DNA of 64,000 bases, taken from assembly GCA_963169765.1 (NCBI GenBank), contig CAUJEN010000048.1, forward strand, positions 1 through 64,000. Reading direction: 5' to 3'. The translations under genes and the position numbers were made by a program. The notes under the pieces are model-generated. The model was not told where the DNA came from, did not search any database, and saw nothing but the letters and a program-made list of their open reading frames with translations. Shown here piece after piece: positions 22,239-60,203 of this stretch. Origin of the DNA: Vulcanimicrobiota bacterium (GTDB lineage: Bacteria; Vulcanimicrobiota; Xenobia; Xenobiales; QWHO01). Position 1 is the first letter of the stretch, and every line of letters begins with the position of its first letter.

Positions 22239-22260
22239 GCTTCTTCGCGCCGCGCCAGGG

Positions 22261-22755: not shown

Positions 22756-22860
22756 GAGCGAAGGGTAGCACGCCCCCCGGCCGGGGGATGTATCGGGTTT
22801 GTTGCGGTTCGGGCGACCGACGGGACAGGGGCCGCTCGGAGCGAGCGAGAAACGGACCCA

Positions 22861-37199: not shown

Positions 37200-37226
37200 T
37201 GCGAAACGAGCTCTTGGAGGGATCTT

Positions 37227-41261: not shown

Positions 41262-41392
41262 GGGGCGCATTGCGTCCACGGTATAAACTGGATTGGGAAG
41301 GTTTGTTTGGCAGGATACCTGTCGAATGCCGGCCCACGAGCTTTGGATCGAACACGAAGGATCGAGGTGCTCAGGTGGCGCGAGCGGATCTG
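41262..41392 (+). repeat. ~130-bp leader element (includes TATAAA box, GAGGTG RBS and first codons of the AAA+ gene), copy A; near-identical copy at 63204-63332
   Basis: Direct alignment: GGGAAGGTTTGTTTGGCAGG(G)ATACCTGTCGAA(T/G)GCCGGCCCACGAGC and GGATCGAGGTGCTCAGGTGGCGCGAGCGGATC identical in both copies. Confidence 0.85.
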
Positions 41393-42331
41393 TTACTGGA
41401 CCTGGTCAGGGCCGGGACGCAAGGGGATCAGGCGCGCTTTCGCAAGGTCGTCGAGGCCTTGATTGCGGAGGAGCGCTCGAAGCAACACCACATTCTAGCT
41501 GACCACCTGAGTGCTCAGCTTCGCGTCAACGGGAACGGGAGCAAGACCAGCGTCGCTTTTCAGCGAGCCAGCGACTATTTCACCTCATCGATACCGCAAA
41601 GGACCTTCACCGATCTGGTCCTACCCGAGCCGGTTCTGGAAGCTTGCCGCGAGATCGTCGAGGAGCACCATCGACGCGAGGTCCTTTTCTCCCACAGCCT
41701 GGAGCCGCGACATCGCATCCTGCTGACCGGCCCCCCCGGGAATGGAAAGACTAGCCTGGCGGAAGCTCTGGCCACGGAACTCATGGTGCCGTTCTATCGC
41801 CTTCGCTACGAGAAGGTGATCGGCAGCTACCTGGGCGAAACCGCGCAGCGGCTGGCCAACCTCTTCGTCGAGGCGAGGGCTCAACATTGCGTGCTGTTTC
41901 TCGACGAGTTCGAAACGCTGGGAAAGGAGCGCGGGGACGAGCACGAGACCGGTGAGATCAAGCGGGTCGTTTCGTCCTTGCTTCTGGAGGTGGATGCCCT
42001 GCCGAGCCACACGGTGATCGTCACCGCTACCAACCACCCCGAATTGCTTGACCGGGCAGTGTGGCGCCGTTTCCAGGTTCAGCTCGAGCTGCCGGCTCCG
42101 GGCCCGGCACAGATTCGCGAGTGGTGGCAACGTTATCAGGCCGCCACGGGCCTCAAGCTGAAGCGCAACATTGACAATCTGACCGAGCGCTTCCGAGGAG
42201 CAAGCTTCTCGGACCTGGAGAATTTTGGGGCAGACCTGCAGCGTCGCTTTGTCTTAAGTCTCCCCGAGGCCTCCGTGGAGACCCTTCTGAGCAAGAGACT
42301 CAAACGGTGGAAGCCCCGAAAGCAGAGCTGA
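41375..42331 (+). CDS. AAA+ ATPase (classical AAA clade)
   Basis: Walker A LLTGPPGNGKTSLA, Walker B CVLFLDEFE, sensor-1 TATN, Arg finger region RAVWRRF; no in-frame ATG, GTG at 41375 preceded by GAGGTG RBS (ORF opens with TTG at 41270). Confidence 0.8.
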   Translation: MARADLLLDLVRAGTQGDQARFRKVVEALIAEERSKQHHILADHLSAQLRVNGNGSKTSVAFQRASDYFTSSIPQRTFTDLVLPEPVLEACREIVEEHHRREVLFSHSLEPRHRILLTGPPGNGKTSLAEALATELMVPFYRLRYEKVIGSYLGETAQRLANLFVEARAQHCVLFLDEFETLGKERGDEHETGEIKRVVSSLLLEVDALPSHTVIVTATNHPELLDRAVWRRFQVQLELPAPGPAQIREWWQRYQAATGLKLKRNIDNLTERFRGASFSDLENFGADLQRRFVLSLPEASVETLLSKRLKRWKPRKQS

Positions 42332-42342
42332 GTCCGACCTGA

Positions 42343-44895: not shown

Positions 44896-45416
44896 TCTGA
44901 CCAAGCCCCTTCCGGCCGGGCGAGGCCGCGCCCGGGCTGCGCGAGAGGAGGCCGAGAAGAGCTTCGAAGAAAGGTGAAGTACTATCAATGTCGCCATGGA
45001 GCAAGTGGGGATGCCGTGCAGCAAAGCAGAGATTCTGAAGAGTTCCAAATTCCCGAGGGGAGGGGCTCCCGAGTGGGCAGGCTCTTGTGCTTGCCACCAG
45101 AGAAGCGAGATCTCATCCTTGCTTTGGCATCCAGCATGGCGCAAAAGCTTTACCTCCGCAGGGACGACATCAATATGGACACGTGCCGTAGCAGTCAGAA
45201 CACCGGATCGTTTTGGGCATGTGTGCTCGCGTCAGTCCGAGGGTAGTATCCTCCAAGAACGCGGACGACGGGGAAACCCCTCTGTGATTCGTTTTCCGGT
45301 GATTCTTGGCAGGAATTGCACTCTCGCCGCGAAGAGTTGCCCGTGCCGCGAGTACCTGCTTCAACTCAGAGTGTTCTGGACATATTCCAGCTTTGCCGTC
45401 AGGTCGGCACATCGCC

Positions 45417-46811
45417 ATGTTGAAGCTCCTCCCGAACCGCAAGCCTTTCCCTCGGGGCCGCCTGCTCGCTCGCAGCGCGAGGACGGGCGTCCACCAGATG
45501 CTGCGCCAGGCCAACGAACCCTATTACTGGTACCGGAACAGGGACGACTATGCTCATGACCTCGGCGCCGAAGACCTCTTCCTGGACGACCTTGGCGTCT
45601 GGTTCTTCGAGCAGTTCGACACGAGCCTTCCGGCGTTCCCGTATCTAGGGGTCGCTCTTGGCCTGCTCATGGCTCGCTGGGATGACTTGAAGTCGGCTGT
45701 CGTACCTGCCAAGCCCTTCTGGAACCGGCACTACAACAGTAAGCGCAAGGCCCACGCGGGCGAGCCTCGCTCCCTGCTCCGACTCGACCGCGCCCGGGAT
45801 GCCCTGTCTTTGTCTCTCGGGGATCGCGTCGAAGGTCCGGACGTTGAGCGCGGTTTCGACTGGCGCCTTCTCCAGGGGCGTTACGGGCCGGAGCTCTTCT
45901 GGCCCCGCTGGTTCGATTTGCCCTACGAGCGTGCCCTGTGGCGGCTCTCGCCCAACCAGGAGTTCGAGCCGTGGAGCCCCTGGCTGTTGCTGCCAGAGGA
46001 GCTGAGACGCTTCCAGGACCTCGAGTTGCCGCAGCCACCGGACCGCTCAGATACTTCCTCCGGCGTCGAGCTGCCGGAGGGTTGGTCCCCGACCGTCCCC
46101 AGCTATGAGATTCTCCCGGTCGAGTTCTCCACGCCCGACCTGCCCCTGCGGGTCGGCGCCGAGGAGAAAGACCTGGCTCGATTCGAGCTACATGTGCTGG
46201 ACCAGGGTCCCAACCCAACCTGCGTCGCTCACGCCGTCTGCACCGCGCTCGACATTCTGCGCAAGCGCAAGCCTCGCCAGCGCGACCACCAGTTCTTCGC
46301 CCCTGCCGACCTCCACATGCGCTGCGGATCGAGCTGGTCCACCGGGCGGAAGCTCTCCGCGGTGATCGACGAGCTCCGGAAGGGCTTGCCTGCTAGCCAG
46401 ACCCCGAAGAGCCGACCAAACTATGGCTCCCCCACAGTCCGCGACCTGAGCGTGCGGGATATTCCCCGACTTAAGGCCCACCTCGCTGCCGGCTGGGTGG
46501 TGGTGATAACCACTTATTTGCCGGAGGAGACCTACCGCAGCAACGCCTTCCGCGAGTTTGGAGAGCCGTTGCGCCCACTCCCCGGCCAGCAACGCCGCAC
46601 ATCCGGCCACGCCTGGGCACTGGTCGGCTACGAGCACGTGGACGGCAACCAGCAGTGGAAGTATCAGGGCCGCTTCATCGCCCTGAACAGCTGGGGCCCG
46701 GGCTTTCCGGATAGACCGCGCCTCCGTCCAGGACTGGTCTCCCTCCCGTTCTCTTTTGTCTACAGCGAAGGGATCGAGGCTTACGCCTTGCGGCTGCCAA
46801 GCTGTGAGTGA
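45417..46811 (+). CDS. Papain-like (C1 family) cysteine peptidase, cytoplasmic
   Basis: QGPNPTCVAHAVCTALD (Gln/Cys region), HAWALVGYEH (His), NSWGPGF (Asn-Ser-Trp-Gly) matching papain catalytic landmarks; no signal peptide; start among 45306/45417/45498 uncertain. Confidence 0.6.
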   Translation: MLKLLPNRKPFPRGRLLARSARTGVHQMLRQANEPYYWYRNRDDYAHDLGAEDLFLDDLGVWFFEQFDTSLPAFPYLGVALGLLMARWDDLKSAVVPAKPFWNRHYNSKRKAHAGEPRSLLRLDRARDALSLSLGDRVEGPDVERGFDWRLLQGRYGPELFWPRWFDLPYERALWRLSPNQEFEPWSPWLLLPEELRRFQDLELPQPPDRSDTSSGVELPEGWSPTVPSYEILPVEFSTPDLPLRVGAEEKDLARFELHVLDQGPNPTCVAHAVCTALDILRKRKPRQRDHQFFAPADLHMRCGSSWSTGRKLSAVIDELRKGLPASQTPKSRPNYGSPTVRDLSVRDIPRLKAHLAAGWVVVITTYLPEETYRSNAFREFGEPLRPLPGQQRRTSGHAWALVGYEHVDGNQQWKYQGRFIALNSWGPGFPDRPRLRPGLVSLPFSFVYSEGIEAYALRLPSCE

Positions 46812-46826
46812 ATTCTGGAGGTGTGG

Positions 46827-48623
46827 ATGAGCCAGGGCGGCACGTTCGAGACTAAAGAGCCCTATCTTGTGGAGCTGCTGCGCAAGATCAGCCAGGGCAG
46901 GATCCAGTTGCCCGACTTCCAGCGCGGCTGGGTCTGGGATGACGGCCACATTCGCTCGCTGCTGGCCAGCGTAACCCTGTCCTACCCCATCGGAGCCGTC
47001 ATGCTGCTCGAGACGGGCTCGGAGACGGTCCGCTTCAAACCTCGTCTCTTCGAGGGAGTTTCGCTCTCGGACGACTGCCAGCCCGAGCGCCTGGCTCTGG
47101 ACGGCCAGCAGCGGCTGACCTCCCTCTACCTGGCCATCGCCAGCGGGCAGCCCGTCCCCACGCGGACCGAGAAGCGACAGGAGGTCCAGCGGCTCTACTA
47201 CCTCGACATGGAAGCGGCTCTTGACCCGGAGCGAGACCGCGAGGAGGCCGTGGTCTCCATACCCTCCTCACGGCAGGTCACCTCCGACTTCGGACGCAAG
47301 ATCGAGCTCGATCTGAGCGAGCCGCACCACGAGTATGCCCGGCGCATGTACCCGTTTCACTGCCTGTTTGACCAGAGTGGAGCCGGCTTCCGCTGGGAGA
47401 GCGGGTATCGCGAGCACTACCAGCACAGCCCGGAATCGAGCCAGTTCCTGATGCGGTTCCAGCAGCAGATCGTGATCCCGTTCCAGCAGTACCGCATCCC
47501 GGTTATCGAGCTCCTGAAGCAGACTCCCAAGGAAGCCGTGTGCCAGGTGTTCGAGAAGGTCAATACCGGCGGTGTCAGTCTGACCGTTTTCGAGCTCGTG
47601 ACCGCCTCCTTCGCCGCCGAGGACTTCCTGCTGCGCGAGGACTGGAATGATCGGGCTGGACGCTTGCGTGAGCGCAAGGTGCTGGAATCGATCGACGCCA
47701 GTGACTTCCTGACCGCCGCGACCTTGCTCACCACCTACGAGCGCAGCCAGTCGGGCAGGGGCCCGGTGAGCTGCAAACGCAAGGACATACTCGAGCGACT
47801 AGACCTGGAGGCCTACCGCCAGACCGCCCCGCGGGTCGAGGACGGTTTCCGGCGGGCATCCGAGTTCCTGGCCACGCAAAAGGTCTACGACTCCCGCAAC
47901 CTGCCCTACAAGACGCAGCTCGTCCCGCTGGCCGTTGTCTGTGCGCTTCTGGGCATGGACTACGACCAGGACCTCGTCCGCGACAAGCTTGCTCGTTGGT
48001 ACTGGTGCGGCGTTTTCGGCGAGCTCTACGGGGGGAGCACGGATGCGCGCTTTGCCTTTGACGTGCCGGAGCTGTGCGCCTGGATTCGCCAGCCCGACGG
48101 CCCGCTGCCCCGCACGGTGCAGGAATGCAATTTCGCCCCCACCCGTCTCCTGAGCATGCAGACCGGGGGGCGGGACTTCATGAATGGGGACGACATCGCC
48201 CTTACGACCTACTTCGATCTGGCCGTGGACATCCACCACGTGTTTCCGGCGGACTACTGCAAGAAGAGCCAGCTCCCCGAGCGCCAGTGGAACAGCGCGG
48301 TCAACAAGACCCCGCTGACGTCGCGCACCAACCGACGCGTCGGGGGACACGCGCCCAGCCACTATCTGCAGAGCCTGATCGCCGCCCGTGTCGTCGACCA
48401 GGCGAAGCTCGATCCGATTCTGCGCAGCCACCTGATCGATCCCGGTTTCCTCTGGGCGGATGACTTCTCGGGATTCCTGCGCTCGCGCGCGGCTCAGCTC
48501 CTGAGCGCGATCGAGCGAGCTACCGGGAAGGAGATTCCCGGCCTCGATTCCGACGAGGTCCGCGACAGCTTTGGAGGGCCGCTCCTGCGAGCTGATCCTG
48601 CTTCCACAGCGGCCCAGGGCTGA
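46827..48623 (+). CDS. GmrSD-family type IV restriction-like nuclease (DUF262 ParB-like N-domain + DUF1524 His-Me finger C-domain)
   Basis: N-term LPDFQRGWVWD (DUF262 signature), C-term VDIHHVFPADYCKK...NKTPLTSRTNR (DUF1524/HNH-like); ATG 46827 with GGAGG RBS. Confidence 0.8.
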   Translation: MSQGGTFETKEPYLVELLRKISQGRIQLPDFQRGWVWDDGHIRSLLASVTLSYPIGAVMLLETGSETVRFKPRLFEGVSLSDDCQPERLALDGQQRLTSLYLAIASGQPVPTRTEKRQEVQRLYYLDMEAALDPERDREEAVVSIPSSRQVTSDFGRKIELDLSEPHHEYARRMYPFHCLFDQSGAGFRWESGYREHYQHSPESSQFLMRFQQQIVIPFQQYRIPVIELLKQTPKEAVCQVFEKVNTGGVSLTVFELVTASFAAEDFLLREDWNDRAGRLRERKVLESIDASDFLTAATLLTTYERSQSGRGPVSCKRKDILERLDLEAYRQTAPRVEDGFRRASEFLATQKVYDSRNLPYKTQLVPLAVVCALLGMDYDQDLVRDKLARWYWCGVFGELYGGSTDARFAFDVPELCAWIRQPDGPLPRTVQECNFAPTRLLSMQTGGRDFMNGDDIALTTYFDLAVDIHHVFPADYCKKSQLPERQWNSAVNKTPLTSRTNRRVGGHAPSHYLQSLIAARVVDQAKLDPILRSHLIDPGFLWADDFSGFLRSRAAQLLSAIERATGKEIPGLDSDEVRDSFGGPLLRADPASTAAQG

Positions 48624-48763
48624 TTCGAAGAAGCGGAGGGATTACCGGTGGCCGATACGCTGCAAGACTCGGTCGACTCCGAGGACAAGGGATTCATCGA
48701 TGACACGCGGAGTTACATCACCCAGATCCAGACAACCTCAGGGGGTACCAGAGCGGCTATCCG

Positions 48764-51700
48764 GTGATTCGGGAGCTGGTGCAGAACGCCGACGACGGCG
48801 GAGCGCTGAAGATCTGCCTGGTCCGGACCGAGCCGATCGCCGGAGTCGACCACCCGCTGCTGAACGCGCCGGGGCTGCTGGTGATCAACGACGGCCGATT
48901 TCAAGAGTCCGACAACGCAGCCATTCGCCGCCTCGGGCTGGGGCACAAGATCGTCGAGACAGGAACGATCGGAAAATTCGGCCTGGGGCTCAAGAGCGTC
49001 TTCCATCTCTGCGAGGTGTTCTTCTTCGGGGCTTCCTCGGTCCGGAAGCACGATGGCAAGGAAGCCGGCGGAGCCTTCGTGACCATCCTGAACCCCTGGT
49101 CACGCCTCGAGAGCCCGAGCCTGGGCGCGACTTTCAAAGCCTGGAATCGAGTCACCTCCAAGGACAAGAACAAGCTCCTCGAGCTGGTCCGGAGCTCGGT
49201 AAAGTGGGAACAGTGGTTCTTCGTCTACCTGCCCTTTCGCCGCAGCGAGTTGTGTCCGCGCGATTCCACAGGTGAGCCGGTCGCCATCACGGCGAACTTC
49301 GCTGGCGATAGGGAGATTCTCCAGGAAGATCTGGCTCGCTGGTGGCCGAGTCTGGCACAGGAGATGTCCCCGGTTCTTCCCCTCTTGCACAACCTGACCG
49401 AGCTCGAGCAAAAGCCGCGCCCCGGGGAGACACTGGCAAGGCTGGTGCTCGCCCCCAAAGGGAGCCGATCGGCCTACCCGGAGGGCTTGACCCGTGGGAA
49501 GGAGCGCGCTCTGGGAGGGCAGTTCGACCTTACCTTCGGGACGGACAAAGCGATACCGGTTCCCTTCGGTGGTCAGGAAGCCCATCTCGCCGACCCCCGG
49601 CTGCAGGAGTTGAAGAACAATTCCCACTGGCCGCGCCAGCCAGTGCTCTTCGTAGAGGGAGAGGACCGCCTGCAGAGCGCGGACAAGAATGCTCCCCACG
49701 CCGCCGCTTATTTCTCGCGCCTGGCCGGCGAGAAGGGACTGCTGAGAATCCGGCTGGCGACCTTTCTCCCGGTGGGTGATCCCCTGGAGGCGATCCCGCT
49801 GGAGGGCGATCTGTCGGTCGACCTGATGCTGCACGGGTTCTTCTTTCTGGACCCGAGCCGCTCCAAGGTGCGCTTCCCGGACGCCCCTACGGCGCCCGGC
49901 AGCATCATCAACGAAGAGCAACTCATGGGGAGCTGGAACCACTACGTCCTTCATCTGGGCACATTGCCTCTGGTGCCGCGCGCTCTGTGCGAGTTCTGCG
50001 AGAGAGCCAGGCTGACACACCCTCAGGCCAGCCTTCTCACCGGAGCCTTCTCCAACTCCGACTTTTGCCGTTCTTACCTCGACTCGCTCACCAGCCGGTT
50101 TACCTGGGAATGTCGACTGAACGGGGGCCCAGAGGGAGCCCGTTTCGACGACGAGCTCGCGGTGACTGCTGTGGCCGGGAGAAAGCCGCAAGTGAGCCGC
50201 TGGGTTCTGCTGTCGGCCGAGGAAGATCCACGCCCTCCCTACCAGTTTCCTCCCGGCGCCGAGGATGAGCTGCTGGATACCTTCTCCGAATGGCGCCGAT
50301 TGGCCGAGCTCGGCCCGGTTTTGCGCCCGTCGCAACCCCGCCTCTCCGCCATCTGTCCGCGATCGTCGCTCTCCCTGTTCGAGCTCAGCGCACTCCTCGG
50401 GGAGCAGCCCGAGGGCTTCTTCGAGGCGATCGAGCATGAGCGCGGCAATCGCCCTGCGCCCCGAGTGCGCAGATTCCACCTTCTTGCCGACCTGCTCCAG
50501 GCGAGTTGGGAGCACGACGAGGCGGCCCGCGGCTGGATTGCCCGGTGGGCGGGCTCGTTTCTCTCTCTGCTCTTGACGAGCTTTTCCTACGAGCGCATCA
50601 AGGACCTGAGCGCGCCGTTGACGCGACTGGTGCGGATGGCACCGAGGGAGGCATGCTTTGTGCCCACCCTGGATGGGGGAGAAGCGGCCTACGTGCTCAT
50701 CCAGCAGCTCAATCACGCGACGAAGGGGCGGCTCCTGACCGTTCCCTCCTATCTCCTGACCGAGGAACTCGGGTCCAATCCAAAGCTGGCCTCCGATTTG
50801 ACGGACAGCATGCTCGGCGTGCTCAGCGGCGGCTCCAATGCCGAGGTGCTGGACCGGTTGGCCCACCAGATCGTCCTCTCCGCGGCGGAGCCAAGGGCGG
50901 AGGTATGGGCCCGAAACCCTCACCTCAAGTTGTTCCGCGCCTACGACGCTGCTCTGGAGGCGCCGCGGGAGTGTCGCGTCCGCTTCGCCGATCTTCAGCG
51001 CGCCCATGAAAGCCATCGCCTCTTTCTGCTGAAGGCCTTTAACCCCGACCTCGAGGCGCTGCTGGCGCGGGCGCTCGCGCCCGGTCCAGCCGGCCCGGTT
51101 CTGGTCCTGAGGCATAGCGCCGCCGAGCTGGCCTACGGGATGCCCGAGCGGGTGCCGGACTGTGGTCTTGATTCCATCGTCAGGCTACTGTCCATGAAGC
51201 CGACCCCCGCGCTGGGAGACCCGGGCGCGCGGGGCAGCCTGCTGGCCAGACTGTTGACGCAGGCGCCAAGCGCGCACCAGAGGTTCGCTCTACGATATCT
51301 CCTTCACGGAGCCAGGGAGCACTTCGACGAGGCCGGACCGCTCTGGCTCCTCCGCCCTCAGGATACCGAGGCTTCCTGGCCGGGAGTGCTGGCGACCATT
51401 CTGCAATCCAGCGACGAGAGGTGGCGGGTGATCCACCCCGACGCCACGCGCGCCCTGAGCGCGGCGGCCCAGGACTGGCTCGATCTGGCGGCGCCCGAGG
51501 AGCGCCAGGTGTGTGCCGATTTGCAGACCCGGGAGGATCTCGGGTGTCTGAGTCAGTCTCAGAGGCTCTTCATTCAGAGGTCGGTCCAGGACGACCAGGT
51601 TTTCAAGTCTCTCTGGATCCACGAGACGCACGATCAGGGGCTGACTTCGATTCAGGAGCAGGTCTTCCTCGAGAGCAACTACCCGCTTCCTGCCGAGTTG

Positions 51701-54700
51701 CAGGCGTCCGCTACGTTCGTTGTGCCCTCTGCTGACCCGGAGGTTCGCAAGAGGCAGGCGCGGCTCATTCCCCTGCTGGGGCCACCCGATGCCGTCCGGC
51801 TGGCCCTGGCGGCGGATCATCCCGAGAGATTCTGGTCCACGATTCTCACGGCGCTGGACAGGACGGGCTGCGACGTGTCCGCCGAGCTGCGCTCGCAGCT
51901 GAGGCACACTCCATGGATTCCGATGCTGGTGGGCCCCGCATCCGGGTTTGGCCAGCTCCTCTACCTCCCGGGCCTGGACAAGATCCTGGACGGATTCCTG
52001 GAGAGATTCGGCCAGGGATTCTCGTCGCTGGCTCAGGTGATACCAGAGCTCACTTCTCACCCGGCGTGGATTCCCGCCTGTCGGGCTTTGCTCCCCGGCG
52101 AGGAAGAGGCTCTCGACCTGCTGGCCCAGCTCCTGGAGGAGCCCGCGGTACCGTCGTTGGGACAACTCCCTGCGAGCCTCCTCACGGACGAAGGCTTCCT
52201 GGACATTCTCTCGTCGATGCCGGAGGAGCTGCTGCCCGGCGCCCTCTTGCTCAATGAGCCCTGGGTTCGAAGGCAGCCCAGGTTCGAAAGCTTGCTTCGC
52301 TCCCTGGCACGCCCAGCAGGGTTGGGAAGGCTGCTGGAGCTCTACCGTTGGGCTGCCGATCAGCATGCGAGCGCCCGGCGCGCCCCGAGAAAGCGCCTGG
52401 CTCTAGAAGCTCTGGCGCTCGAGTACCTCGTGCAGGCAATCCGTTCCAAGGAGTTTGCTGCTGAGTTCGAGCGGTTGCCGCTTCTGAGCCTGAGCGGTGC
52501 CTGGAAGAAGGCCGGCCAGCTATGCCACGGAGTTCCTAATGTCGACCCTGCCAGCCTTCTCTCGGAGCCGTTTGCGGAAGTCCTGAAGGCTTTCTTGCCG
52601 GAAGCCGGGCAGCTCGAGACGGGGCCGAAGGAGATTCTTGTCTCGACCCGACACCATTCCTTGTCGGATTGCCTGCAGACCCTTTTCGGGTCGCCCGGAT
52701 GGAAGAAGTGCCCCGAGGAGGTGATTGGGGCCTTCTATGCCATCTTTGCGCCCCAGGAAGAGGCCGTCGCGAAGGAAGCCGTTCGCCGTCTCCGCTTGCC
52801 CGATTTGAAGGGGACGCGCGCCGGTCTGTTCATTCCGGAAGAGGCGACCTGTCGTCACACCCCGCCGGGGCGATCCCAGCACAACCTGACGTTGCGCCTC
52901 GAGCTCGAGGTTCTCCAGGCGGACACGGTCAGGGTAGTCGCTCTCTCCGGTGATCGGTTGAGCGTCCGGTTGGACAAGAGCATCAGCCGGCTTCTCATGG
53001 CCAGCTCCAAGCCTGCCATCTTCGAGCGAACTGCCGTTTTCACTCTCCAACTGCTGCTTTTCGACCCCATCGAGCTGGAGGCGTCCGAGATTCAGGGCAT
53101 CGTCTGGTGCACCGCCTGGGAGATTATCGCGCGAACTTACTTCAATGAGCGTACCGAGGACGCCATCAAGGCGGCCAAAAAGGCTGCTTCCGATTATTGG
53201 AGCGAGCAGATCCTCGAAGCCGGGCAGTTTGACATCAACGTTGCGCAGAAGCTAATCGAGGAGTATTTCCCGCTGTATTTCCGCATGCTGCCGCGAACCA
53301 AGAAGAACAAGCTCGCGCAGGAGATGGAGAACCTGGACTCGCTGCGGCACAAGCGGGCCGAGGCCGACGTCTCGAAGGTATACGACGTCAAGCGCAGACT
53401 GCGCGACGAAGTCGAGGCTGATCTGCCTAAAATCCAACAGAGAATCGTGAGCCTGATTCGTACGGATGCGGAAGTGCAGGCTTCCCTGCTGGAAATGGTG
53501 CGCTGCAAGATCGGGGGGCATTTTCAGTACACGCTGCTCTCCATCCCCTTCGAGCTCTTCCAGAACGCAGACGATGCCGAGGTAGAACTGGCCGGCATGG
53601 GAGGCGAAGCCGCGATCACGCACGACTTTCTGATCGAGGAGCTCCCCGAAGGGCTGGTTTTCGGTCACAACGGCAGGTTGATCAACCAGTACCTGAGCCC
53701 CGACGGCCGTGACTACCGGTCCATCGGCTACCACAAGGATCTGGAGAAGATGCTGATTCTTCAAGGCTCCGACAAGGAGCTCGACCGCGAGGTCTTCGAG
53801 CGCACCGGCAAATTCGGGCTTGGTTTCAAGTCGGTCTTTCTCGCGTCGGACGAGGTGGAGGTCCGAAGTGGTCGGCGGCACTTTCGGATCGTCGGCGGAG
53901 TTTACCCCGTGCCGGCCGAGGCGGATTCTTTCTTCCGCAACCGACCTCAGGAGAACGCCTCGTTCAACACCCAGATCTACCTCAGGCCCCGCAAGGGCAG
54001 CTCGACGAAGGAATGGCTCGACTCCATCCTGACCGACTTCCGGCGCCGCCTGGCCATCCAGCTCGTCTTCGCCCACAGCATTCGCTCGGCGGTCTGGAAG
54101 GATCGTTCGGGCGTCGTCCGTCAGCATGGCTGGCAGCCGCGGCCGGTTTTGGGATTGGACTCCGTGCTCATCGGACGACTGTCACAATTCGCCTCCGAGG
54201 CAGGGAACGAGCGGGCTCTGGTCCTGGAATCCTCGGCTGGCCGGGTGCTCTTTCTGTTGACTTCGGCCGGGATCGCCCCCCCCGATCCGGACATGCCGAG
54301 GGGATGGGTGACGACGCCTCTGGCGGAGGTCGCACCCTGCAATTTCGTGGTGAACGCCAACTTTGCTGTCGACATCGGGCGGCACCAACTGGCCGCCGAA
54401 TCAAAAGAGAATCGTTCGCTGGCGCAGGCTCTGGGGAGGGCCGCGGGGGCGAGCCTTGTCGAGCTGTATCTCAAGGCAACCAATGCCGGATGGCCGGCCC
54501 TGCGCCAGGAGCTCGAGCTCTCGCCAGATCTCGCCGAGGAGACATTCTGGGCGGGGCTCTGGAAGTCACTTGGAGGGGCGACTTCGAGAGCCGGGGAGGA
54601 GGATACGCTTTCGGAGTTCGAGCGGTTAATTCGGGGGGTGGAGGCCGAGTGCTTACGCTCGCTGACCGGTCGCAATCCCGTGATTCCGACTGACTTGTGG

Positions 54701-56287
54701 GGCTCCTTCTCCGGCACTACGGCCCAACACAGTATCCGGGCACAGGTGACCGGGTTGCTGGCCCGAGAGACGATTTTCAGGGGAGCGGAGCGACTGCTTG
54801 CCAGGTACTACGCGCCCTTGAGCCTGGTTGATTTTCGCGTCGCGCAGCTCCTGGCACGCGTCCTCCCAGGCTTTTCCGTCCCCACTCTCAACCTGAGCCG
54901 ACTCGTGACCCAGGCCCTTCCCGACGACCAACTGACCCCTGAGACAGCCGACCTGGTGGCCGAAGCATGTTCCGAGCAGAGCCTCAATGAGTTTGAGGGG
55001 GAGCTCCACGGGGAGATTCAGGAGCTGCGTCAAAAGCTTGGCTCGCTGCTGGCGAAGAACGCTGACGCCCAGTGGCGCCGGCTCGATGGTCTCCTCATCG
55101 ACAGCGCACAGGATACCGAGGAGCAGCTCCTTTGCAGGTTCAGCCCCTCCGAGCGCCTTTTGTCCCCGGACTACTCCGAGCAAGCTCGCCCCTTCTTGCT
55201 GCAGGTGCGTGGAGCCCCGTCGAGCTCGACCGAGGAGATCGCCGACTGGGTGCTCTCGGCAAGTGGCGGGTCTGCCCGGCATGGCGCTCTCATCTATATC
55301 CTGCAAGGTGCCAGGGGCCGCGACGTGGCAGCGAGGCTCTACCGGCTACTCGCCACCGGGCGCCCCTCCTGGCTCAGGGCCGTCCTCGAGACAGGGGTGC
55401 TCGTCGCTTTGGGATTTAGCGCCGGTGACGCACGCGAGCTCATCCGGCTGATCCTGCCGCCGACCGCCGGACCACGGCCCCTTGAGACGAAACCCATCGG
55501 AAATCCGATTGCCCGGCTGCGGAGGCTGCAGGAATGGTGGACCCGTAATGGCGAGGAATGCCTGCGGCGCTACGAGAGACGCGTCTATCCGCACCAGTGC
55601 CTGCCCGACCTGGAGAGCAAGAAGGGCTGGCTGGTCTTGCTCATGCTGGGCGCCCTGCACAGAATGGGAAGGCAGAAGCGTCAGCAGAGCCGGGGATTCC
55701 TGGAGATGTTCGAGTCTCGCAACTGGCTCGACAAGATGCTTTTCGCCAGGGCCAAGCCCGAAGGCCTGATCGACGTTCTGGACCAGTACTTCGCCGAGGA
55801 GGACGATCAGAGATTCTTTCACTGGCTGGGATTTCTCCCAACGATGTACCAACTCAGCCGCTGGCTCGACGAGTATGTCGTGATGCTGGAGGAGTTCAAC
55901 AAGGTCAAGGGGTCTCAGACGGTTGAGGACTTCATCGCGCCACGCAGCGCCGCCTACTGGCAGGGGGCCAACGTCAGCGCTCCCAACCTCAGGCGAACCC
56001 TGGGAGTCGGCACCTGCTTCGTACTGCGCGAGCTCCGCCGCAGAAAGTGGCTCCGGAAGGACGAGCTGGACCCCTACTGCTTTACTCCCACCAAACGCGT
56101 CTTGGAGCGCCTCGAGCTCCTGACCGGCGACGTCGTCGAGAGAGACTCCCATCTCGAGTCTTCCCGGCGAGTCTACACGATTCTTCACGGCTACCTCGGG
56201 GACGAAGGAGCCACGTTCGGGCACTGCTTCGACCTTCCGTTCCGGCTGGTTCCCGATGACCAGTTCGAAGACATCGCCAGGGCATGA
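48764..56287 (+). CDS. Giant (2507 aa) protein with two sacsin-type GHKL/HSP90-like ATPase modules
   Basis: Bergerat N-box IRELVQNADDGGA and G2 box GKFGLGLKSVF at N-terminus; second module FELFQNADDAEVE ... GKFGLGFKSVF near nt 53545-53840; only in-frame start is GTG 48764; stop overlaps next gene start (ATGA at 56284). Confidence 0.8.
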   Translation: MIRELVQNADDGGALKICLVRTEPIAGVDHPLLNAPGLLVINDGRFQESDNAAIRRLGLGHKIVETGTIGKFGLGLKSVFHLCEVFFFGASSVRKHDGKEAGGAFVTILNPWSRLESPSLGATFKAWNRVTSKDKNKLLELVRSSVKWEQWFFVYLPFRRSELCPRDSTGEPVAITANFAGDREILQEDLARWWPSLAQEMSPVLPLLHNLTELEQKPRPGETLARLVLAPKGSRSAYPEGLTRGKERALGGQFDLTFGTDKAIPVPFGGQEAHLADPRLQELKNNSHWPRQPVLFVEGEDRLQSADKNAPHAAAYFSRLAGEKGLLRIRLATFLPVGDPLEAIPLEGDLSVDLMLHGFFFLDPSRSKVRFPDAPTAPGSIINEEQLMGSWNHYVLHLGTLPLVPRALCEFCERARLTHPQASLLTGAFSNSDFCRSYLDSLTSRFTWECRLNGGPEGARFDDELAVTAVAGRKPQVSRWVLLSAEEDPRPPYQFPPGAEDELLDTFSEWRRLAELGPVLRPSQPRLSAICPRSSLSLFELSALLGEQPEGFFEAIEHERGNRPAPRVRRFHLLADLLQASWEHDEAARGWIARWAGSFLSLLLTSFSYERIKDLSAPLTRLVRMAPREACFVPTLDGGEAAYVLIQQLNHATKGRLLTVPSYLLTEELGSNPKLASDLTDSMLGVLSGGSNAEVLDRLAHQIVLSAAEPRAEVWARNPHLKLFRAYDAALEAPRECRVRFADLQRAHESHRLFLLKAFNPDLEALLARALAPGPAGPVLVLRHSAAELAYGMPERVPDCGLDSIVRLLSMKPTPALGDPGARGSLLARLLTQAPSAHQRFALRYLLHGAREHFDEAGPLWLLRPQDTEASWPGVLATILQSSDERWRVIHPDATRALSAAAQDWLDLAAPEERQVCADLQTREDLGCLSQSQRLFIQRSVQDDQVFKSLWIHETHDQGLTSIQEQVFLESNYPLPAELQASATFVVPSADPEVRKRQARLIPLLGPPDAVRLALAADHPERFWSTILTALDRTGCDVSAELRSQLRHTPWIPMLVGPASGFGQLLYLPGLDKILDGFLERFGQGFSSLAQVIPELTSHPAWIPACRALLPGEEEALDLLAQLLEEPAVPSLGQLPASLLTDEGFLDILSSMPEELLPGALLLNEPWVRRQPRFESLLRSLARPAGLGRLLELYRWAADQHASARRAPRKRLALEALALEYLVQAIRSKEFAAEFERLPLLSLSGAWKKAGQLCHGVPNVDPASLLSEPFAEVLKAFLPEAGQLETGPKEILVSTRHHSLSDCLQTLFGSPGWKKCPEEVIGAFYAIFAPQEEAVAKEAVRRLRLPDLKGTRAGLFIPEEATCRHTPPGRSQHNLTLRLELEVLQADTVRVVALSGDRLSVRLDKSISRLLMASSKPAIFERTAVFTLQLLLFDPIELEASEIQGIVWCTAWEIIARTYFNERTEDAIKAAKKAASDYWSEQILEAGQFDINVAQKLIEEYFPLYFRMLPRTKKNKLAQEMENLDSLRHKRAEADVSKVYDVKRRLRDEVEADLPKIQQRIVSLIRTDAEVQASLLEMVRCKIGGHFQYTLLSIPFELFQNADDAEVELAGMGGEAAITHDFLIEELPEGLVFGHNGRLINQYLSPDGRDYRSIGYHKDLEKMLILQGSDKELDREVFERTGKFGLGFKSVFLASDEVEVRSGRRHFRIVGGVYPVPAEADSFFRNRPQENASFNTQIYLRPRKGSSTKEWLDSILTDFRRRLAIQLVFAHSIRSAVWKDRSGVVRQHGWQPRPVLGLDSVLIGRLSQFASEAGNERALVLESSAGRVLFLLTSAGIAPPDPDMPRGWVTTPLAEVAPCNFVVNANFAVDIGRHQLAAESKENRSLAQALGRAAGASLVELYLKATNAGWPALRQELELSPDLAEETFWAGLWKSLGGATSRAGEEDTLSEFERLIRGVEAECLRSLTGRNPVIPTDLWGSFSGTTAQHSIRAQVTGLLARETIFRGAERLLARYYAPLSLVDFRVAQLLARVLPGFSVPTLNLSRLVTQALPDDQLTPETADLVAEACSEQSLNEFEGELHGEIQELRQKLGSLLAKNADAQWRRLDGLLIDSAQDTEEQLLCRFSPSERLLSPDYSEQARPFLLQVRGAPSSSTEEIADWVLSASGGSARHGALIYILQGARGRDVAARLYRLLATGRPSWLRAVLETGVLVALGFSAGDARELIRLILPPTAGPRPLETKPIGNPIARLRRLQEWWTRNGEECLRRYERRVYPHQCLPDLESKKGWLVLLMLGALHRMGRQKRQQSRGFLEMFESRNWLDKMLFARAKPEGLIDVLDQYFAEEDDQRFFHWLGFLPTMYQLSRWLDEYVVMLEEFNKVKGSQTVEDFIAPRSAAYWQGANVSAPNLRRTLGVGTCFVLRELRRRKWLRKDELDPYCFTPTKRVLERLELLTGDVVERDSHLESSRRVYTILHGYLGDEGATFGHCFDLPFRLVPDDQFEDIARA

Positions 56288-58980
56288 GGCAAGAGATGAA
56301 TCAGGTGGACGTCGGTTCGAGAGTGCGGCATCCCCAGCACGGGACCGGAACGGTTCAGATGTGCCAGGGCGTTCTGGCCATTGTCGAGTTTGACGAGCCC
56401 GGCCTCCAGCGCGTTGAGGTAGGCGATCTCGAGCTGCTCGCCTCGGCGACCCGGGCGGTCGGGCGAGACCACTGGGATCCCCCCATCGCCACCACGACAC
56501 GGCTTCTGGCCGAGTCCATCCTGTCCGTCAACGACGCGTGGGGCGTTTTTGCTCCCTCGAACATCGACCTGCTTCCGCATCAGCTTTGGGTCTGCAAGAA
56601 GGTGAATCAGTTCTGGCCCACGCGATGGTTGGTGGCTGACGATGTCGGTCTCGGTAAGACCATCGAAGCCGGCCTGATCCTTTGGCCGCTTCTCTCGCGT
56701 GGGCAGGTTCGCCGGGTGCTCGTGCTGACTCCGGCTTCTCTCGTGGATCAGTGGCGCGAGCGCATGTACGAGATGTTTGACATTCGGCTTCAGGCCTATC
56801 GCGCCGACGAGGACCGAGGTCGGGTGAACTTCTGGGAGCGCGAGAACCAGGTTGTCGCTTCCTTTCATACCCTGAGACTGGACCGGAACCAGCGTCACGA
56901 GAGAATCCTCAAGGCCCCGCCCTGGGACCTGGTCATCGTGGATGAGGCCCATCACCTGAACAGCGATGAGGAGCTTGGGCCCACTCGGACCTATCGTTTC
57001 GTGCAGCAACTCGAGGAGGCCGGTCTGATCGAGTCCATGGTCTTCTTCACCGGTACTCCCCATCGCGGGAAAGACTGGGGATTTCTGTCCCTCATGCAGC
57101 TGCTTCGCAAGGAGCTGTTCAACCCTCGCAAGCCTGCCGCTGAGCAGCTCGGCCACCTGCCATCGGTCATGATACGCAACAACAAGTATTCGGTGACCGA
57201 CCTGGAAGGACGGCGCCTCTTCCAGCCTCCCAAAGTGCGCCAGATCGATTACAAGTACAGCTCTGACGAGCAAGACTTCTACGATCTGATCTCGGATTTC
57301 ATCCAGAATGGCTATGCCTATTCCAACCGCCTGAACGTGACGATGGGAAATGCGGTCACGCTGGTGCTGATCGCGATTCAGAAGCTGGCGGCCAGCTCGG
57401 TGGCGGCGGTACTTCGTGCCCTGCGCAAACGCCTGCAGCTCCATGGCCAGCGGCGGACCCAGCGCGACTCCTTCGAGGCCCATCTCGAGCAAATTCGGGA
57501 GGCAAGCGCGAATCTGGACCTCGATCGGGCGGCCGAGCTGGAAGCAGCCCTGGCGGAGATCGCCGGCGACCTCGTGCTCATGGAGGACGAGGTTCCCCAT
57601 CTCGAGGAGCTGATCGTCGCGGCCGAGCGAGTGCGCTCGGAAACGAAGATCGAGCTCATTCTCGACCTGCTCGAGAAGGAGTATGCCGGTCGTCAGGTTC
57701 TGTTTTTCACGGAGTACAAGGCCACCCAGTCCCTGTTGCTGTCCCGTCTCAACGCTCGATTTGGCGAGGGGCTCACGGCATTCATCAACGGAGACGAGCG
57801 CGCCGAGGAGGTGAGGGATGCGGAGGGGCAACTTCGAACCCTGCGAATGCCCCGAGCTGAGGCGGCTGAGGCCTTCAACTCGGGCAAGGCGACCTATCTG
57901 ATCTCGACGGAAGCGGGCGGCGAGGGGATCGACCTTCAGGAGCGCTGCCACACGCTGATTCACGTCGACCTCCCATGGAACCCGATGCGGATGCACCAGC
58001 GGGTAGGTCGGCTCAATCGCTACGGTCAGAAGCGGCAGGTCGAGGTGGCGGTCGTCAGAAACCGAGCCACGGTCGAGTCGAGAATCTTCGACCGATTGAC
58101 CGAGAAGATTCATTCCATCAACCGGGCCTTCGACGAAGTCATGGAGGAGCCGGAGGACCTCTTCAACCTGATCTTGGGGTTCGCGTCGGGCCAGTTTTTC
58201 AACGACCTCTACGCAAGCGCCCGCAGGTCGTTCAGTGGCGACGACGACGACGAGCGCTTGAGTCGCTGGTTCGACTTCAAAACCGGCAGCTTTGGAGGCC
58301 AGGACGCGATCGCCACGGTGAAGGGGCTGATCGGCAACGTGGCCCGCTTCAATTTCCAGCAGGTATCCGAGGATTTACCCAAGGTCAATCTGCCCGACCT
58401 GAAGCCGTTTTTCGAAGCGATGCTCACGCTGAATCACCGCCGGCCGACCTACGAGGGGCACAGTCTGTCGTTCATCACTCCGGATGAATGGCGCGAAGAG
58501 CGCGGAATCCAGCCGAGATACTCGGGCCTTCACTTCGACCGGACCGTGCGTGACCGCGAAGCCCGCAAGGGAATTCTGGGAGTCGGACAGAGGTTGATGG
58601 ACCTGGCTCTCTCGCAAGCGAGGGGGCGTACCGAAACCCTGACCGGTTTCACCAAGAGCAGCCAGCCGGGACCCTTGTTCGTCTTCCGCATCCGGGACCG
58701 GATCACGAGAGGAAATACCTCGGTTCGCTTTCAGATCGCGGGAGTCCACGATAACGGGAAGACCCTGCGGCTTCTCAAAGACTGGGAGCTCGTTCTCCAA
58801 CTCAACTCGACACTTGAGAGAGGAGCCGCTAGAGATGAGCCACAGCGCCCGCTGGTCTCGGGCGAGCAGGTGGAGAGCGGGATTGATCGGGCCAGGAGTT
58901 TTCTCGAGTCGCGCCTTCCTTCCATGGACCTGCCGTTCCAGCATCCGGACGTCGAGGTACTGGGGACAATCTGGAAATAG
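56284..58980 (+). CDS. SNF2/SWI2-family helicase with N-terminal UvrD-C-terminal-like Tudor domain
   Basis: N-term GSRVRHPQHGTGTV (UvrD/PcrA C-terminal Tudor-like), motif I WLVADDVGLGKTIEAG, Ia LVLTPASLVDQW, II LVIVDEAHHLNS, V LISTEAGGEGIDLQ, VI HQRVGRLNRYGQ. Confidence 0.85.
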   Translation: MRQEMNQVDVGSRVRHPQHGTGTVQMCQGVLAIVEFDEPGLQRVEVGDLELLASATRAVGRDHWDPPIATTTRLLAESILSVNDAWGVFAPSNIDLLPHQLWVCKKVNQFWPTRWLVADDVGLGKTIEAGLILWPLLSRGQVRRVLVLTPASLVDQWRERMYEMFDIRLQAYRADEDRGRVNFWERENQVVASFHTLRLDRNQRHERILKAPPWDLVIVDEAHHLNSDEELGPTRTYRFVQQLEEAGLIESMVFFTGTPHRGKDWGFLSLMQLLRKELFNPRKPAAEQLGHLPSVMIRNNKYSVTDLEGRRLFQPPKVRQIDYKYSSDEQDFYDLISDFIQNGYAYSNRLNVTMGNAVTLVLIAIQKLAASSVAAVLRALRKRLQLHGQRRTQRDSFEAHLEQIREASANLDLDRAAELEAALAEIAGDLVLMEDEVPHLEELIVAAERVRSETKIELILDLLEKEYAGRQVLFFTEYKATQSLLLSRLNARFGEGLTAFINGDERAEEVRDAEGQLRTLRMPRAEAAEAFNSGKATYLISTEAGGEGIDLQERCHTLIHVDLPWNPMRMHQRVGRLNRYGQKRQVEVAVVRNRATVESRIFDRLTEKIHSINRAFDEVMEEPEDLFNLILGFASGQFFNDLYASARRSFSGDDDDERLSRWFDFKTGSFGGQDAIATVKGLIGNVARFNFQQVSEDLPKVNLPDLKPFFEAMLTLNHRRPTYEGHSLSFITPDEWREERGIQPRYSGLHFDRTVRDREARKGILGVGQRLMDLALSQARGRTETLTGFTKSSQPGPLFVFRIRDRITRGNTSVRFQIAGVHDNGKTLRLLKDWELVLQLNSTLERGAARDEPQRPLVSGEQVESGIDRARSFLESRLPSMDLPFQHPDVEVLGTIWK

Positions 58981-59261
58981 GTCACCTCGGACCCCCATAA
59001 ATGGCTTTCAGTCGCGATTCATGAGGCCGAAACTTCTTGGCTCGATTCGGAAACTCCGTTTTCAGCGGAGTTGGTAACCTGTTGGGATCGAGGACCTGCT
59101 CTACATGGACGAGGTCGAGCAATTTTCCGATTGAACCGCATCGACGTATGGAATTTGCCCGTACGGCCGACGTCGCGCCAGGCGTGTCGGATCTGACAGG
59201 AGGCCGAGGCGGTCTGCGAGAAAGATGAATCATTCTCAACGTTGCGAAGGAGCGCAGAAGC

Positions 59262-59579
59262 ATGCAGTCCATCCAGCCGGAGGAGCTCAAGGTCCGTGCC
59301 CAGATCAAGGAGCGCTTTTTGGACGCCGTGAAGCGTTCTGGATCGGGTAGCCGGGCCAGCGCTCTTGTGGCGGCCCTTCGCAAGCACACCGATGCTCCGG
59401 AAATCAAGATTCAGTCCGTTTTTCTGCAGCTTCTCGACGAGGGCAAGATTACCGTTGGCCAGGATCTGCTCGTGCGCCTGGCGCCCAAGCTCGAAGCCGA
59501 AGAGCAGCCGAAGAAAGCCCAAAAGCAGGCCTCGGCCAGGGTCAAAGCAGCCACGAAGATAACCATCCCGGCCAGATAG
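59262..59579 (+). CDS. Small conserved hypothetical protein (105 aa) with Lys-rich C-terminal tail; paralog at 63633
   Basis: AAGGAG RBS 9 nt upstream; ~93% nucleotide identity over ~300 bp with 63568-63870; MQSIQPEELKVRAQIKERFLDAVKRSGSG...ITVGQDLLVRLAP. Confidence 0.55.
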   Translation: MQSIQPEELKVRAQIKERFLDAVKRSGSGSRASALVAALRKHTDAPEIKIQSVFLQLLDEGKITVGQDLLVRLAPKLEAEEQPKKAQKQASARVKAATKITIPAR

Positions 59580-60203
59580 ATGACTTTGCGCGAGGATCGG
59601 CGCACGACTACGTCGATGAAGATCAAAGAACGCCCGGTCAGCGAGATCGCGATCGAGTCCATTACTCTCAGGCGATGGTGCGCCTCCCAGGTCGTCAGTT
59701 CGGGAGAGGTACAACAACCGATTGAGCCAAACGTTCAAAGTAGCCCAGGTCGGCCGTCGATTGGCGGAAAGGTTGCGTGAGGAATCGCCCCAGCTTGGGA
59801 GACGGGCTCATCGACGGAAAGCCCTTCGAGGACACCAGACCCATTCTCGGGCTTGCGCCGCCTGTTGGAGCAGAACGAGGCCGAGCTGCGCCGGTGCAGT
59901 CTCAACCTGCCCGTCTGGCGTGACCTCTTGCGCAGCCACGGCCGCAACATCGCCGCCGCCTGGCGCCATTGGGAGCACGAGAGCGAGCTGCGCGCCCGGC
60001 TGGCCGAAGTGGCGGCGAGTGACGGGTTGTCCATCGGTTCTGCCGGGTTCAGGATTTCGATCGGGTGTTGCTGGCTCGACGAGCCTTGATTGATTCTGGA
60101 AGGTGGCCTGCGTGCCTGAGAGGGCGCATCGAGTTTCGAAGCACGTCGGGCTATTCCCACTGCCAGGTAGGCGAAGGAGTGTTTCCGTCGAATTCCCGGC
60201 TCC

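Follow-up and report, generated by a model that had tools for sequence, protein, structure and literature searches.

The window analysed here, a stretch of 64,000 nucleotides (nt) from a Vulcanimicrobiota bacterium (assembly GCA_963169765.1, contig CAUJEN010000048.1, positions 1 to 64,000 of the forward strand), encodes a giant protein with two GHKL ATPase heads and, directly downstream, an ATPase of the SNF2 family. Across related loci the two genes are inherited as a unit, and the conserved unit is this pair, not a trio that would include the GmrSD-like restriction gene found immediately upstream in the window. The giant carries two GHKL+S5 ATPase modules with catalytic residues present, and its partner, judged by sequence, is an SNF2 ATPase that resembles RapA and DrmD, is intact and has a Tudor domain of the UvrD/PcrA type. 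We read the pair as an autonomous, horizontally mobile and uncharacterised two-gene system against mobile elements, most likely directed at phages or plasmids by way of their DNA, and we give this reading an even chance of being right.

Linkage of the giant and SNF2 genes

Homologs of the giant numbered 231, and among the 120 matches listed most were 2440–2630 amino acids (aa) long and all were either unnamed or labelled 'sacsin N-terminal ATP-binding-like'. Proteins of ~2500 aa account for nearly all occurrences of the C-terminal 947 residues (610 clusters at 50% identity, E ≤ 1e-30). We assembled 83 loci, 78 of which had usable downstream sequence, and in 76 of these 78 an orthologous full-length SNF2 gene (~900 aa, 43–65% identity) lies directly 3′ of the giant on the same strand; the two exceptions are a locus with a divergent SNF2 and a locus without any. 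Most loci have a short estimated intergenic gap, −4 nt being the most frequent value, and clustering of flanking open reading frames (ORFs) revealed no other family common to more than four loci. When the search was reversed and metagenome contigs were queried with the SNF2 protein, the giant was found directly upstream of all ~26 full-length orthologs of at least 39% identity that had enough upstream sequence. SNF2 proteins of 36% identity or less match the helicase core only and, one divergent case aside, are not accompanied by the giant. The two proteins have correlated similarity matrices (Spearman 0.69; Mantel 0 of 999 permutations), with a median normalised similarity of 0.15 for the giant versus 0.46 for the SNF2. 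The association with an SNF2 gene, proposed in the original prediction from the letters of this one stretch, is conserved, reciprocal and spread over at least 15 phyla. The same prediction counted the GmrSD gene as a partner, a role which the comparison does not bear out: GmrSD homologs are present in 2 of the 83 loci and are never adjacent to the pair.

Some relatives depart from the usual arrangement. In three loci that carry divergent sub-families (L049, L050 and L140) similarity to the giant stops near residue 2200; an SNF2 of 28–29% identity lies ~1.1 kb away in L049 and L140, and L050 has none. Two further loci of this kind (L106 and L107) combine an SNF2 of 39–40% identity with a much more divergent giant and a gap of 1.6–1.9 kb, which may hold an extra gene. 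In L005, L028 and L030 a DEAD+MZB helicase of the DrmA/DruE-like kind begins no more than ~100 nt from where the SNF2 gene ends.

Architecture of the two proteins

The features of the pair in the window are as follows.

48635–48767 (+): true 5′ end of the giant gene, with ribosome-binding site GGAGGG at 48635–48640 and start codon GTG at 48648
48764–56287 (+): giant ORF as it stands, 2507 aa
48764–50083 (+): GHKL+S5 ATPase module 1, residues ~1–440, with N box, INDGRF and G2 box
50084–53530 (+): alpha/beta and alpha-helical scaffold, residues ~441–1589 (~1150 aa), poorly conserved
53531–54403 (+): GHKL+S5 ATPase module 2, residues ~1590–1880, with N box, HNGRLIN and G2 box
55505–56284 (+): all-helical C-terminal domain, residues ~2248–2507, with a predicted fold like that of HhH-GPD DNA glycosylases (HhH, helix-hairpin-helix)
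56284–58980 (+): SNF2 ATPase, 898 aa from ATG 56284 or 894 aa from ATG 56296
56311–56433 (+): putative UvrD/PcrA-type Tudor domain, SNF2 residues ~10–50, by profile match

The 2507-aa protein contains both of the GHKL signatures reported for it. Head 1 has the N box ELVQNADDG at residues 4–12 (nt 48773–48799), INDGRF at nt 48884–48901 and the G2 box GKFGLGLKSVF at residues 70–80 (nt 48971–49003). In head 2, 1593 aa further along, the N box ELFQNADDA spans residues 1597–1605 (nt 53552–53578), HNGRLIN lies at nt 53666–53686 and the G2 box GKFGLGFKSVF occupies residues 1682–1692 (nt 53807–53839). Matches to Pfam SACS (E = 1.1e-19) and, in two stretches, to NCBIfam NF047352 ('sacsin N-terminal ATP-binding-like', E = 1.5e-27) uphold the sacsin-like assignment, and the family profile matches human sacsin SR1 (5v44, E = 2.9e-22), with the second head matching HtpG. 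Chance resemblance of the boxes was a stated risk of the original prediction. Both heads adopt the Bergerat alpha/beta sandwich fold in structure prediction, and the N and C halves of the protein align by hhalign at 96.7% probability (E = 4.4e-10); the signatures are not chance matches. A duplication of the whole protein was considered and rejected, as the hhalign homology is limited to the two 84-residue ATPase cores and the remainder has no detectable repeat.

Within the family, the Glu and Asn of the N box and the G2 box are invariant in both heads (25–40 homologs). The G1 box of head 1 reads NDG, is N/D-variable across the family, and is NN in human sacsin. In head 2 the G1 box is unusual, HWGRxIN or more broadly H-[WN]-G-R-x-I-N, with G1637 and R1638 invariant and no Asp. 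Because this box lacks the adenine-contacting Asp of DxGxG, ATP binding by head 2 is not certain.

AlphaFold2 tiles built with 40-sequence alignments (residues 1–1150, pLDDT 85.5; residues 1561–2507, pLDDT 88.8) place an S5-fold/transducer domain directly after the GHKL domain in each head, and as modelled both heads are GHKL+S5 modules of the MORC/MutL/topoisomerase/Hsp90 type. Sacsin SR1 is the top match of head 1 by both structure and sequence. For module 2 Foldseek ranked full-length Hsp90/TRAP1 first, with 540–760 alignment columns, and MutL was also among the structural matches of the giant. The ~1700 aa outside the ATPase signatures, to which no function had been ascribed, are thus partly filled by two S5/transducer domains, helical scaffolds and the glycosylase-like C-terminus. 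The scaffold between the modules has no recognisable enzymatic domain, and its structural matches are weak ones to repeat proteins.

Structural matches of the C-terminal tile include more than 20 HhH-GPD DNA glycosylases and relatives, among them Mag1, MagIII, MutY, OGG1, AlkA and ROS1. The best-conserved C-terminal motif of the family is RTLG[IV]GxxFVxRELxR, and its LG[IV]G forms the turn between two model helices, as in a helix-hairpin-helix. It is because the motif sits in this turn that the glycosylase match is assigned to residues ~2248–2507, where the model has the two-lobed helical fold with helix-hairpin-helix (LxGhG) expected of HhH-GPD proteins. In the window copy the LGVG hairpin lies at 56000–56011, RELxR at 56027–56041 and FDLPF at 56228–56242. 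HhH-GPD enzymes carry a catalytic Asp ~20 residues past the hairpin, after a Gly/Pro-rich loop, plus a Lys in the bifunctional ones. The segment after the hairpin in the window contains PYCFTPTKRVLERL (window PYCFTPTKRV; family consensus HCYVPxxRVR), and the invariant residues of the domain, E2423 and D2490, lie away from the expected Asp position. From its model, we take the domain as a module that would bind DNA and probe bases, with uncertain catalytic competence. Since the usual catalytic Asp is not evident, it is probably a reader rather than a canonical glycosylase.

A HEPN-like Rx4-6H motif ('GRxxxxQHR') in the C-terminal domain was discarded, as its His is not conserved (Ser in the window clade; Asn or Thr elsewhere). 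Seven homologs (P0015, P0027, P0029, P0031, P0043, P0044 and P0053) have an extra conserved C-terminal peptide, GDFVTLxNGRVIPRxYM or GWVTLADGRRV, that is missing from the window giant and might be a docking peptide. Another homolog, P0026 (2365 aa), additionally carries PF13020 (DUF3883), described as a restriction-endonuclease-like domain (PMC3710099), which hints at a fused nuclease in some relatives.

The giant ORF of the window lacks the first 41 residues present in homologs. From the GTG at 48648, 28 codons in the +1 frame (MADTLQDSVDSEDKGFIDDTRSYITQIQ) match homolog N-termini, and a 1-nt deletion at ~48731, 28 codons into the gene, is followed by an out-of-frame run to a TGA at 48765–48767 that overlaps GTG 48764, giving a leader ORF of 39 codons. 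Just 5′ of 48764 the frame of the giant encodes DNLRGYQSGYP, which is the conserved stretch leading into the N box. With one base re-read at ~48731 the reconstructed N-terminus aligns gap-free to five homologs (P0001–P0005), and the intact giant would be 2548 aa from 48648. The deletion is probably real, because the DNA of the region is identical in a separate Logan assembly (L168, run ERR10655378), possibly derived from the same sample as the window assembly, and because the site is not a homopolymer; an assembly artefact is unlikely on the same grounds. As the leader TGA overlaps GTG 48764, re-initiation there could, at best, yield a product without the 41 N-terminal residues of ATPase head 1.

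In the SNF2 protein all motifs are intact, namely GLGKT (56647–56661), DEAH (56941–56952), TGTP and, as motif VI, QRVGRLNRYGQ (57997–58029), and they are invariant in 15 orthologs. The helicase core spans residues ~92–615 (Pfam SNF2-rel_dom 2e-14, Helicase_C 2.1e-14, and ResIII), and the C-terminal ~280 aa have no match in Pfam and none in the PDB by profile. Translational coupling of the two genes had been proposed from an ATGA at 56284. This overlap of the giant's stop with an ATG exists, but the ATG at 56296 has a better Shine-Dalgarno sequence (GAGG, 56286–56289), is the start called elsewhere and is the more likely one, so that the genes are tightly packed and the overlap itself is uncertain. 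The Tudor domain that had been assigned to the SNF2 is supported at the profile level: a profile of 15 orthologous N-termini matches the UvrD Tudor 7egt_B at E = 1e-5 and, more weakly, 9dqs, 6yi2, 9dci and 7egs, whereas single-sequence Pfam matches stay below threshold (DUF3553 0.045, PcrA_UvrD_tudor 0.17 and, in one ortholog, CarD_TRCF_RID 0.015).

By sequence the nearest solved structure is RapA (8so8, 3.1e-47); the NCBIfam RapA model, whose cutoff is 576 bits, gives 167. Another related SNF2 is HmaA (3.1e-67). A match to a named system in defence models had been foreseen as grounds for abandoning the novelty of the pair, and one model touches on this: PADLOC PDLC02634, labelled DrmD, matches SNF2 residues 10–896 at 1e-264. 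This model seems to represent the SNF2 family of the pair itself. NCBIfam DISARM_DrmD (NF038317) reaches 265.9 bits (9.3e-79) against a cutoff of 610 and covers residues 109–615 only, and NF038318 gives 161.5 bits against a cutoff of 950. The DrmD label does not make the pair DISARM, because DISARM core genes are not conserved beside it and the NCBI cutoff is unmet.

Genomic setting and competing explanations

Giant relatives are present in 358 of 185,579 species genomes (one genome per species), or ~0.2%, and their distribution is patchy over at least 15 phyla as read from record titles. Five PLSDB plasmids carry the family, two of them conjugative. A phage origin was considered and set aside, as the family was found in none of 50,697 phage genomes and in one of 2.9 million IMG/VR contigs.

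Genes of known defence systems recur around the pair. In the window BrxD, PglW, IetAS and GmrSD are on the same strand; in A. fischeri the pair adjoins BrxR and Wadjet; and in V. tubiashii it is flanked by a type I restriction-modification (R-M) system and by the TniQ-Cascade genes that belong to a Tn7-like element, with CBASS following. DISARM-like genes and CBASS accompany it in Bradyrhizobium (L166) and UBP9 (L001/L004). On conjugative plasmid C of Trichormus variabilis ATCC 29413 (L169, NC_007412.1 274301–285070), DISARM class-2-like genes adjoin the pair. Scanned with PADLOC, 111 flanking ORFs of 20 further loci gave strong matches to AriA, Old, AbiLi, HEC-01A, NsnB, HmaC, DrmMI, type IIG R-M, ZacA/ZacB, DRT reverse transcriptase, SoFic and Cas1. 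As a side observation, on the Trichormus plasmid the annotation splits the giant into two ORFs (AVA_RS29100 and AVA_RS29095), followed by the SNF2 gene AVA_RS29090, the immediate neighbours being drmC, a DUF1998 gene and a C5-methylase; Trichormus variabilis is a culturable cyanobacterium.

The pair lies in a GC-rich stretch (~65%) where all genes from ~27.3 kb to 59 kb are on the + strand. Upstream of the pair this co-directional region contains the following.

27331–41231 (+): block of BrxD, a 1202-aa protein, a 1733-aa DEAD+MZB helicase and PglW
41270–44895 (+): complete IetA/IetS pair (PADLOC 3e-136 and 7e-296)
45306–46811 (+): 501-aa ORF with no match in Pfam, PADLOC or NCBIfam
46821/46827–48623 (+), ATG 46827: GmrSD-like type IV restriction gene (Pfam GmrSD_N 2e-28; PADLOC PDC-M55C and HEC-05)

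The block from BrxD to PglW may be an incomplete or variant BREX type 2/Pgl-like system; PglX and PglZ are absent from the window, the 1202-aa protein had no match in any library searched, and the helicase, 11 kb upstream of the pair, has DruE as its top PADLOC match. By eye, the C-terminal half of the 501-aa ORF shows papain-like cysteine peptidase motifs (NPTCVAHAV, GHAWALVGY and NSWG), and this ORF stops 9 nt upstream of the GmrSD ORF, an arrangement also present in the Logan assembly. The nuclease gene described upstream of the giant is indeed there: the GmrSD-like protein has the DUF262 motif DGQQR at residues 94–98 (nt 47100–47114) and, by eye, a DUF1524-like IHHVFP (48231–48248) and NKTPL within residues 471–499, where Pfam did not report DUF1524. 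Nothing recognisable lies 3′ of 58980 except one opposite-strand gene with two DUF domains, and a promoter and terminator scan of 44500–60000 was uninformative. Farther upstream, 12020–14482 (−) encodes an 820-aa bacterial protein resembling major vault protein (major-vault-protein shoulder 3.9e-28; Band_7 and Vault_3 domains), and a CHASE2-adenylate/guanylate cyclase and a large cyclase/AAA_16/TPR protein (17319–19193 and 21835–26541, +) precede the defence island. Proteins identical or 99% identical to those of the window are deposited under 'bacterium CPR1'.

We infer the mechanism of the pair from the known behaviour of its constituent families. The two GHKL heads would close upon ATP binding, as those of MutL, GyrB, Hsp90 and MORC do, and closure may take place within one polypeptide, so that the long helical scaffold would enclose DNA as a gate or clamp. 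The HhH domain at the C-terminus would bind DNA and probe its bases, while the SNF2 motor would translocate on duplex DNA and move, load or drive the clamp; its recruitment may run via RNA polymerase through the Tudor domain. The expected outcome would be that replication or transcription of foreign DNA is blocked, or that the DNA is marked for host nucleases. Because the module has no methylase and no recognisable nuclease, self and non-self would be told apart by modification, in the manner of type IV systems, or by a structural or transcriptional cue, and the effect would come by obstruction, silencing or recruitment of host nucleases. It is possible, although we rather doubt it, that the pair represents a new class of prokaryotic immune machine: a single-chain pseudo-dimeric GHKL clamp whose two MORC/Hsp90-like heads close on each other, with a catalytically re-purposed HhH reader, driven along DNA by an RNA-polymerase-tethered SNF2, restricting foreign DNA without nuclease or methylase of its own, for example by silencing or obstruction as MORC/SMCHD1 do in eukaryotic chromatin, and maybe the bacterial ancestor of sacsin repeats.

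Several observations weigh against a role in defence acting through DNA. The window copy of the giant is probably impaired by its early frameshift, and no methyltransferase, recognisable nuclease or other effector is encoded in the pair. In Serratia sp. JUb9 and on a 2.7-Mb contig the pair stands alone among housekeeping genes, and the PADLOC survey of flanking ORFs had no matched control, which leaves enrichment in defence islands qualitative. With Hsp90 ranked first for the modelled module 2, a protein instead of DNA may be the substrate. The likeness of the C-terminal domain to glycosylases is at fold level, with no similarity in sequence, and no conserved acidic residue was found at the helix N-cap where the canonical Asp would be, in a manual register against EndoIII and MutY motifs that makes a weak test.

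Genome maintenance is a rival explanation that would fit the loci among housekeeping genes. The pair would then serve transcription-coupled repair or damage surveillance of the cell's own DNA as an analogue of Mfd/CSB, built from a MutL-like GHKL matchmaker, a glycosylase-like lesion reader and an RNA-polymerase-bound SNF2 translocase. RapA is the nearest solved relative of the SNF2, whose Tudor domain is of the type that binds RNA polymerase in the repair helicases UvrD and PcrA, and the structural matches include MutL and repair enzymes of the HhH-GPD type. We nonetheless consider this unlikely: presence in ~0.2% of species over so many phyla is atypical for a repair pathway, the pair recurs in defence islands, a Tn7-like element and conjugative plasmids, and the giant evolves fast relative to the SNF2. 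A chaperone or remodeller, in which the giant acts on proteins (RNA polymerase or phage proteins) and the RapA-like SNF2 recycles stalled polymerase, would suit the sacsin SR1 and Hsp90/TRAP1 matches of the two modules. It is highly improbable given a C-terminal domain that points to DNA and a genomic context of defence genes, not of stress or chaperone regulons.

The remaining alternatives would assign the pair to larger or known systems. That the SNF2 is DrmD and the giant an accessory or embedded component, working only with DrmA, DrmB, DrmC and a methylase, would account for the near full-length PDLC02634 match, for the DISARM-like neighbours in UBP9, Bradyrhizobium and Trichormus and perhaps for the MZB helicase upstream in the window. 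We regard it as very unlikely, and DISARM membership was rejected: the NCBIfam score is confined to the helicase core and short of its cutoff, no DrmA, DrmB, DrmC or methyltransferase gene lies beside the pair in the window (nor were DrmB, DrmC or the methylase found in the region), an MZB helicase is within 10 kb in just 6 of 87 loci, there is no third conserved gene family, and in Serratia, Vibrio, Aliivibrio and others DISARM genes are absent from the vicinity of the pair. A three-gene restriction module with GmrSD as the nuclease of the GHKL-SNF2 machine gains some appeal from the 24 nt that separate the GmrSD gene from the giant's true start, on the same strand and also in the Logan assembly of the same organism. 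The rarity of GmrSD at other loci largely refutes it and leaves it scarcely credible, and GmrSD-like proteins are stand-alone type IV enzymes often embedded in other systems (bioRxiv 10.1101/2024.01.29.577857), which also counts against the trio. The GmrSD gene is a separate type IV restriction gene of the same island and a neighbour only. Equally hard to credit is a variant of Tiamat with the giant as a duplicated or fused TmtA. PADLOC TmtA models match both heads (best E 1.1e-17), but only at residues 2–84 and 1596–1756 and with at most 61.5 bits; these matches span ~80–160 residues of models 1063–1655 positions long and amount to ATPase motifs, the SNF2 partner is obligate, and the C module of the giant is essentially confined to ~2500-aa proteins. 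Tiamat membership was rejected accordingly.

If the pair is an anti-mobile-element system, then a widespread family (at least 600 clusters at 50% identity, 358 species) is mislabelled or missed by current annotation, with PADLOC calling the SNF2 'DrmD' and seeing just the ATPase motif in the giant. In eukaryotes, the counterparts of its parts are proteins of silencing and quality control, namely MORC, SMCHD1, sacsin and the SNF2 remodellers. A tractable bacterial version could reveal how tandem GHKL heads cooperate with an SNF2 motor and could show the original role of the sacsin-type repeat architecture, and the glycosylase-like tail suggests a link to the sensing of modified phage DNA.

Comparison with known systems

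No named system was found to fit the giant-SNF2 pair in PADLOC, NCBIfam, Pfam or the literature, as the original prediction had supposed. PADLOC-DB 2.0, Pfam and NCBIfam hold no model for the giant beyond the ATPase motif, and a full-text literature search turned up no report of a sacsin-like protein in bacteria that is partnered by an SNF2. Sacsin itself, with its SRR/SIRPT repeats (SR1), resembles the giant in size and in repeating Hsp90-like GHKL modules more than 1000 aa apart. It differs in its three repeats and its UBL, DnaJ and HEPN domains, and is considered a chaperone, whereas the giant combines two repeats with a C-terminus of the HhH glycosylase-like kind and an SNF2 partner gene that is obligate; no sequence similarity to sacsin was detected beyond the first ~170 residues.

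For the SNF2 protein, RapA is the closest solved structure and likewise has a small N-terminal domain ahead of the SNF2 core. That domain of RapA is also Tudor-like and contacts RNA polymerase. Unlike the SNF2 of the pair, RapA has no giant as partner and is a housekeeping gene of wide distribution. DrmD of class 1 DISARM is the closest defence-annotated SNF2 family, and the pair occasionally adjoins DISARM genes, but besides the shortfall against the NCBI equivalog cutoff, the NCBI model match includes neither the Tudor N-terminus nor the 280-aa C-terminal domain, and DrmA, DrmB, DrmC and DrmMI are not conserved partners. Tiamat shares the sacsin-type GHKL head through TmtA and is reportedly, as represented in PADLOC, a single-gene system with no SNF2 partner. 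Hma needs an m5C (5-methylcytosine) methylase (HmaB) and the ATPase HmaC besides the SNF2 protein HmaA (PMC8565338), and membership was rejected as neither a methylase nor HmaC lies beside the pair in the window.

Glycosylases have been described in anti-phage defence, namely Brig1 (PMC11078745) and the HhH-superfamily 'Dag' proteins (bioRxiv 10.1101/2025.10.29.685425), and the common ground with the giant would be an HhH-superfamily fold that reads modified bases of phage DNA. Those proteins are small enzymes that stand alone and whose base excision has been demonstrated or modelled, whereas the fold in the giant is the tail of a 2500-aa ATPase in which the canonical Asp is not evident and to which they have no sequence similarity. 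In the GHKL-Shedu protein VcSduA, of the paraMORC3 type, GHKL ATPase activity (E27) is required for anti-phage defence and a clamp-like middle domain is thought to gate the effector (PMC12137116). VcSduA differs in that it is encoded by one gene and joins a single GHKL head to a DUF4263 nuclease of the PD-(D/E)xK type; the giant lacks this nuclease and is paired with an SNF2.

The MORC/paraMORC operons, predicted as R-M-like GHKL+SNF2 operons by Iyer, Abhiman and Aravind in 2008 (PMC2292703), likewise tie a GHKL+S5 protein to a SWI2/SNF2 helicase gene in conflict-system neighbourhoods, and the logic predicted for both is an ATP-driven device that clamps or loops DNA, joined to a translocase. 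Their proteins are single-headed, of ordinary size and usually accompanied by HNH or EcoRII-like nucleases, whereas the pair combines two heads in one 2500-aa chain with neither nuclease nor methylase. We rate the pair as falling among the GHKL-ATPase and SNF2 conflict modules, with an unusual architecture.

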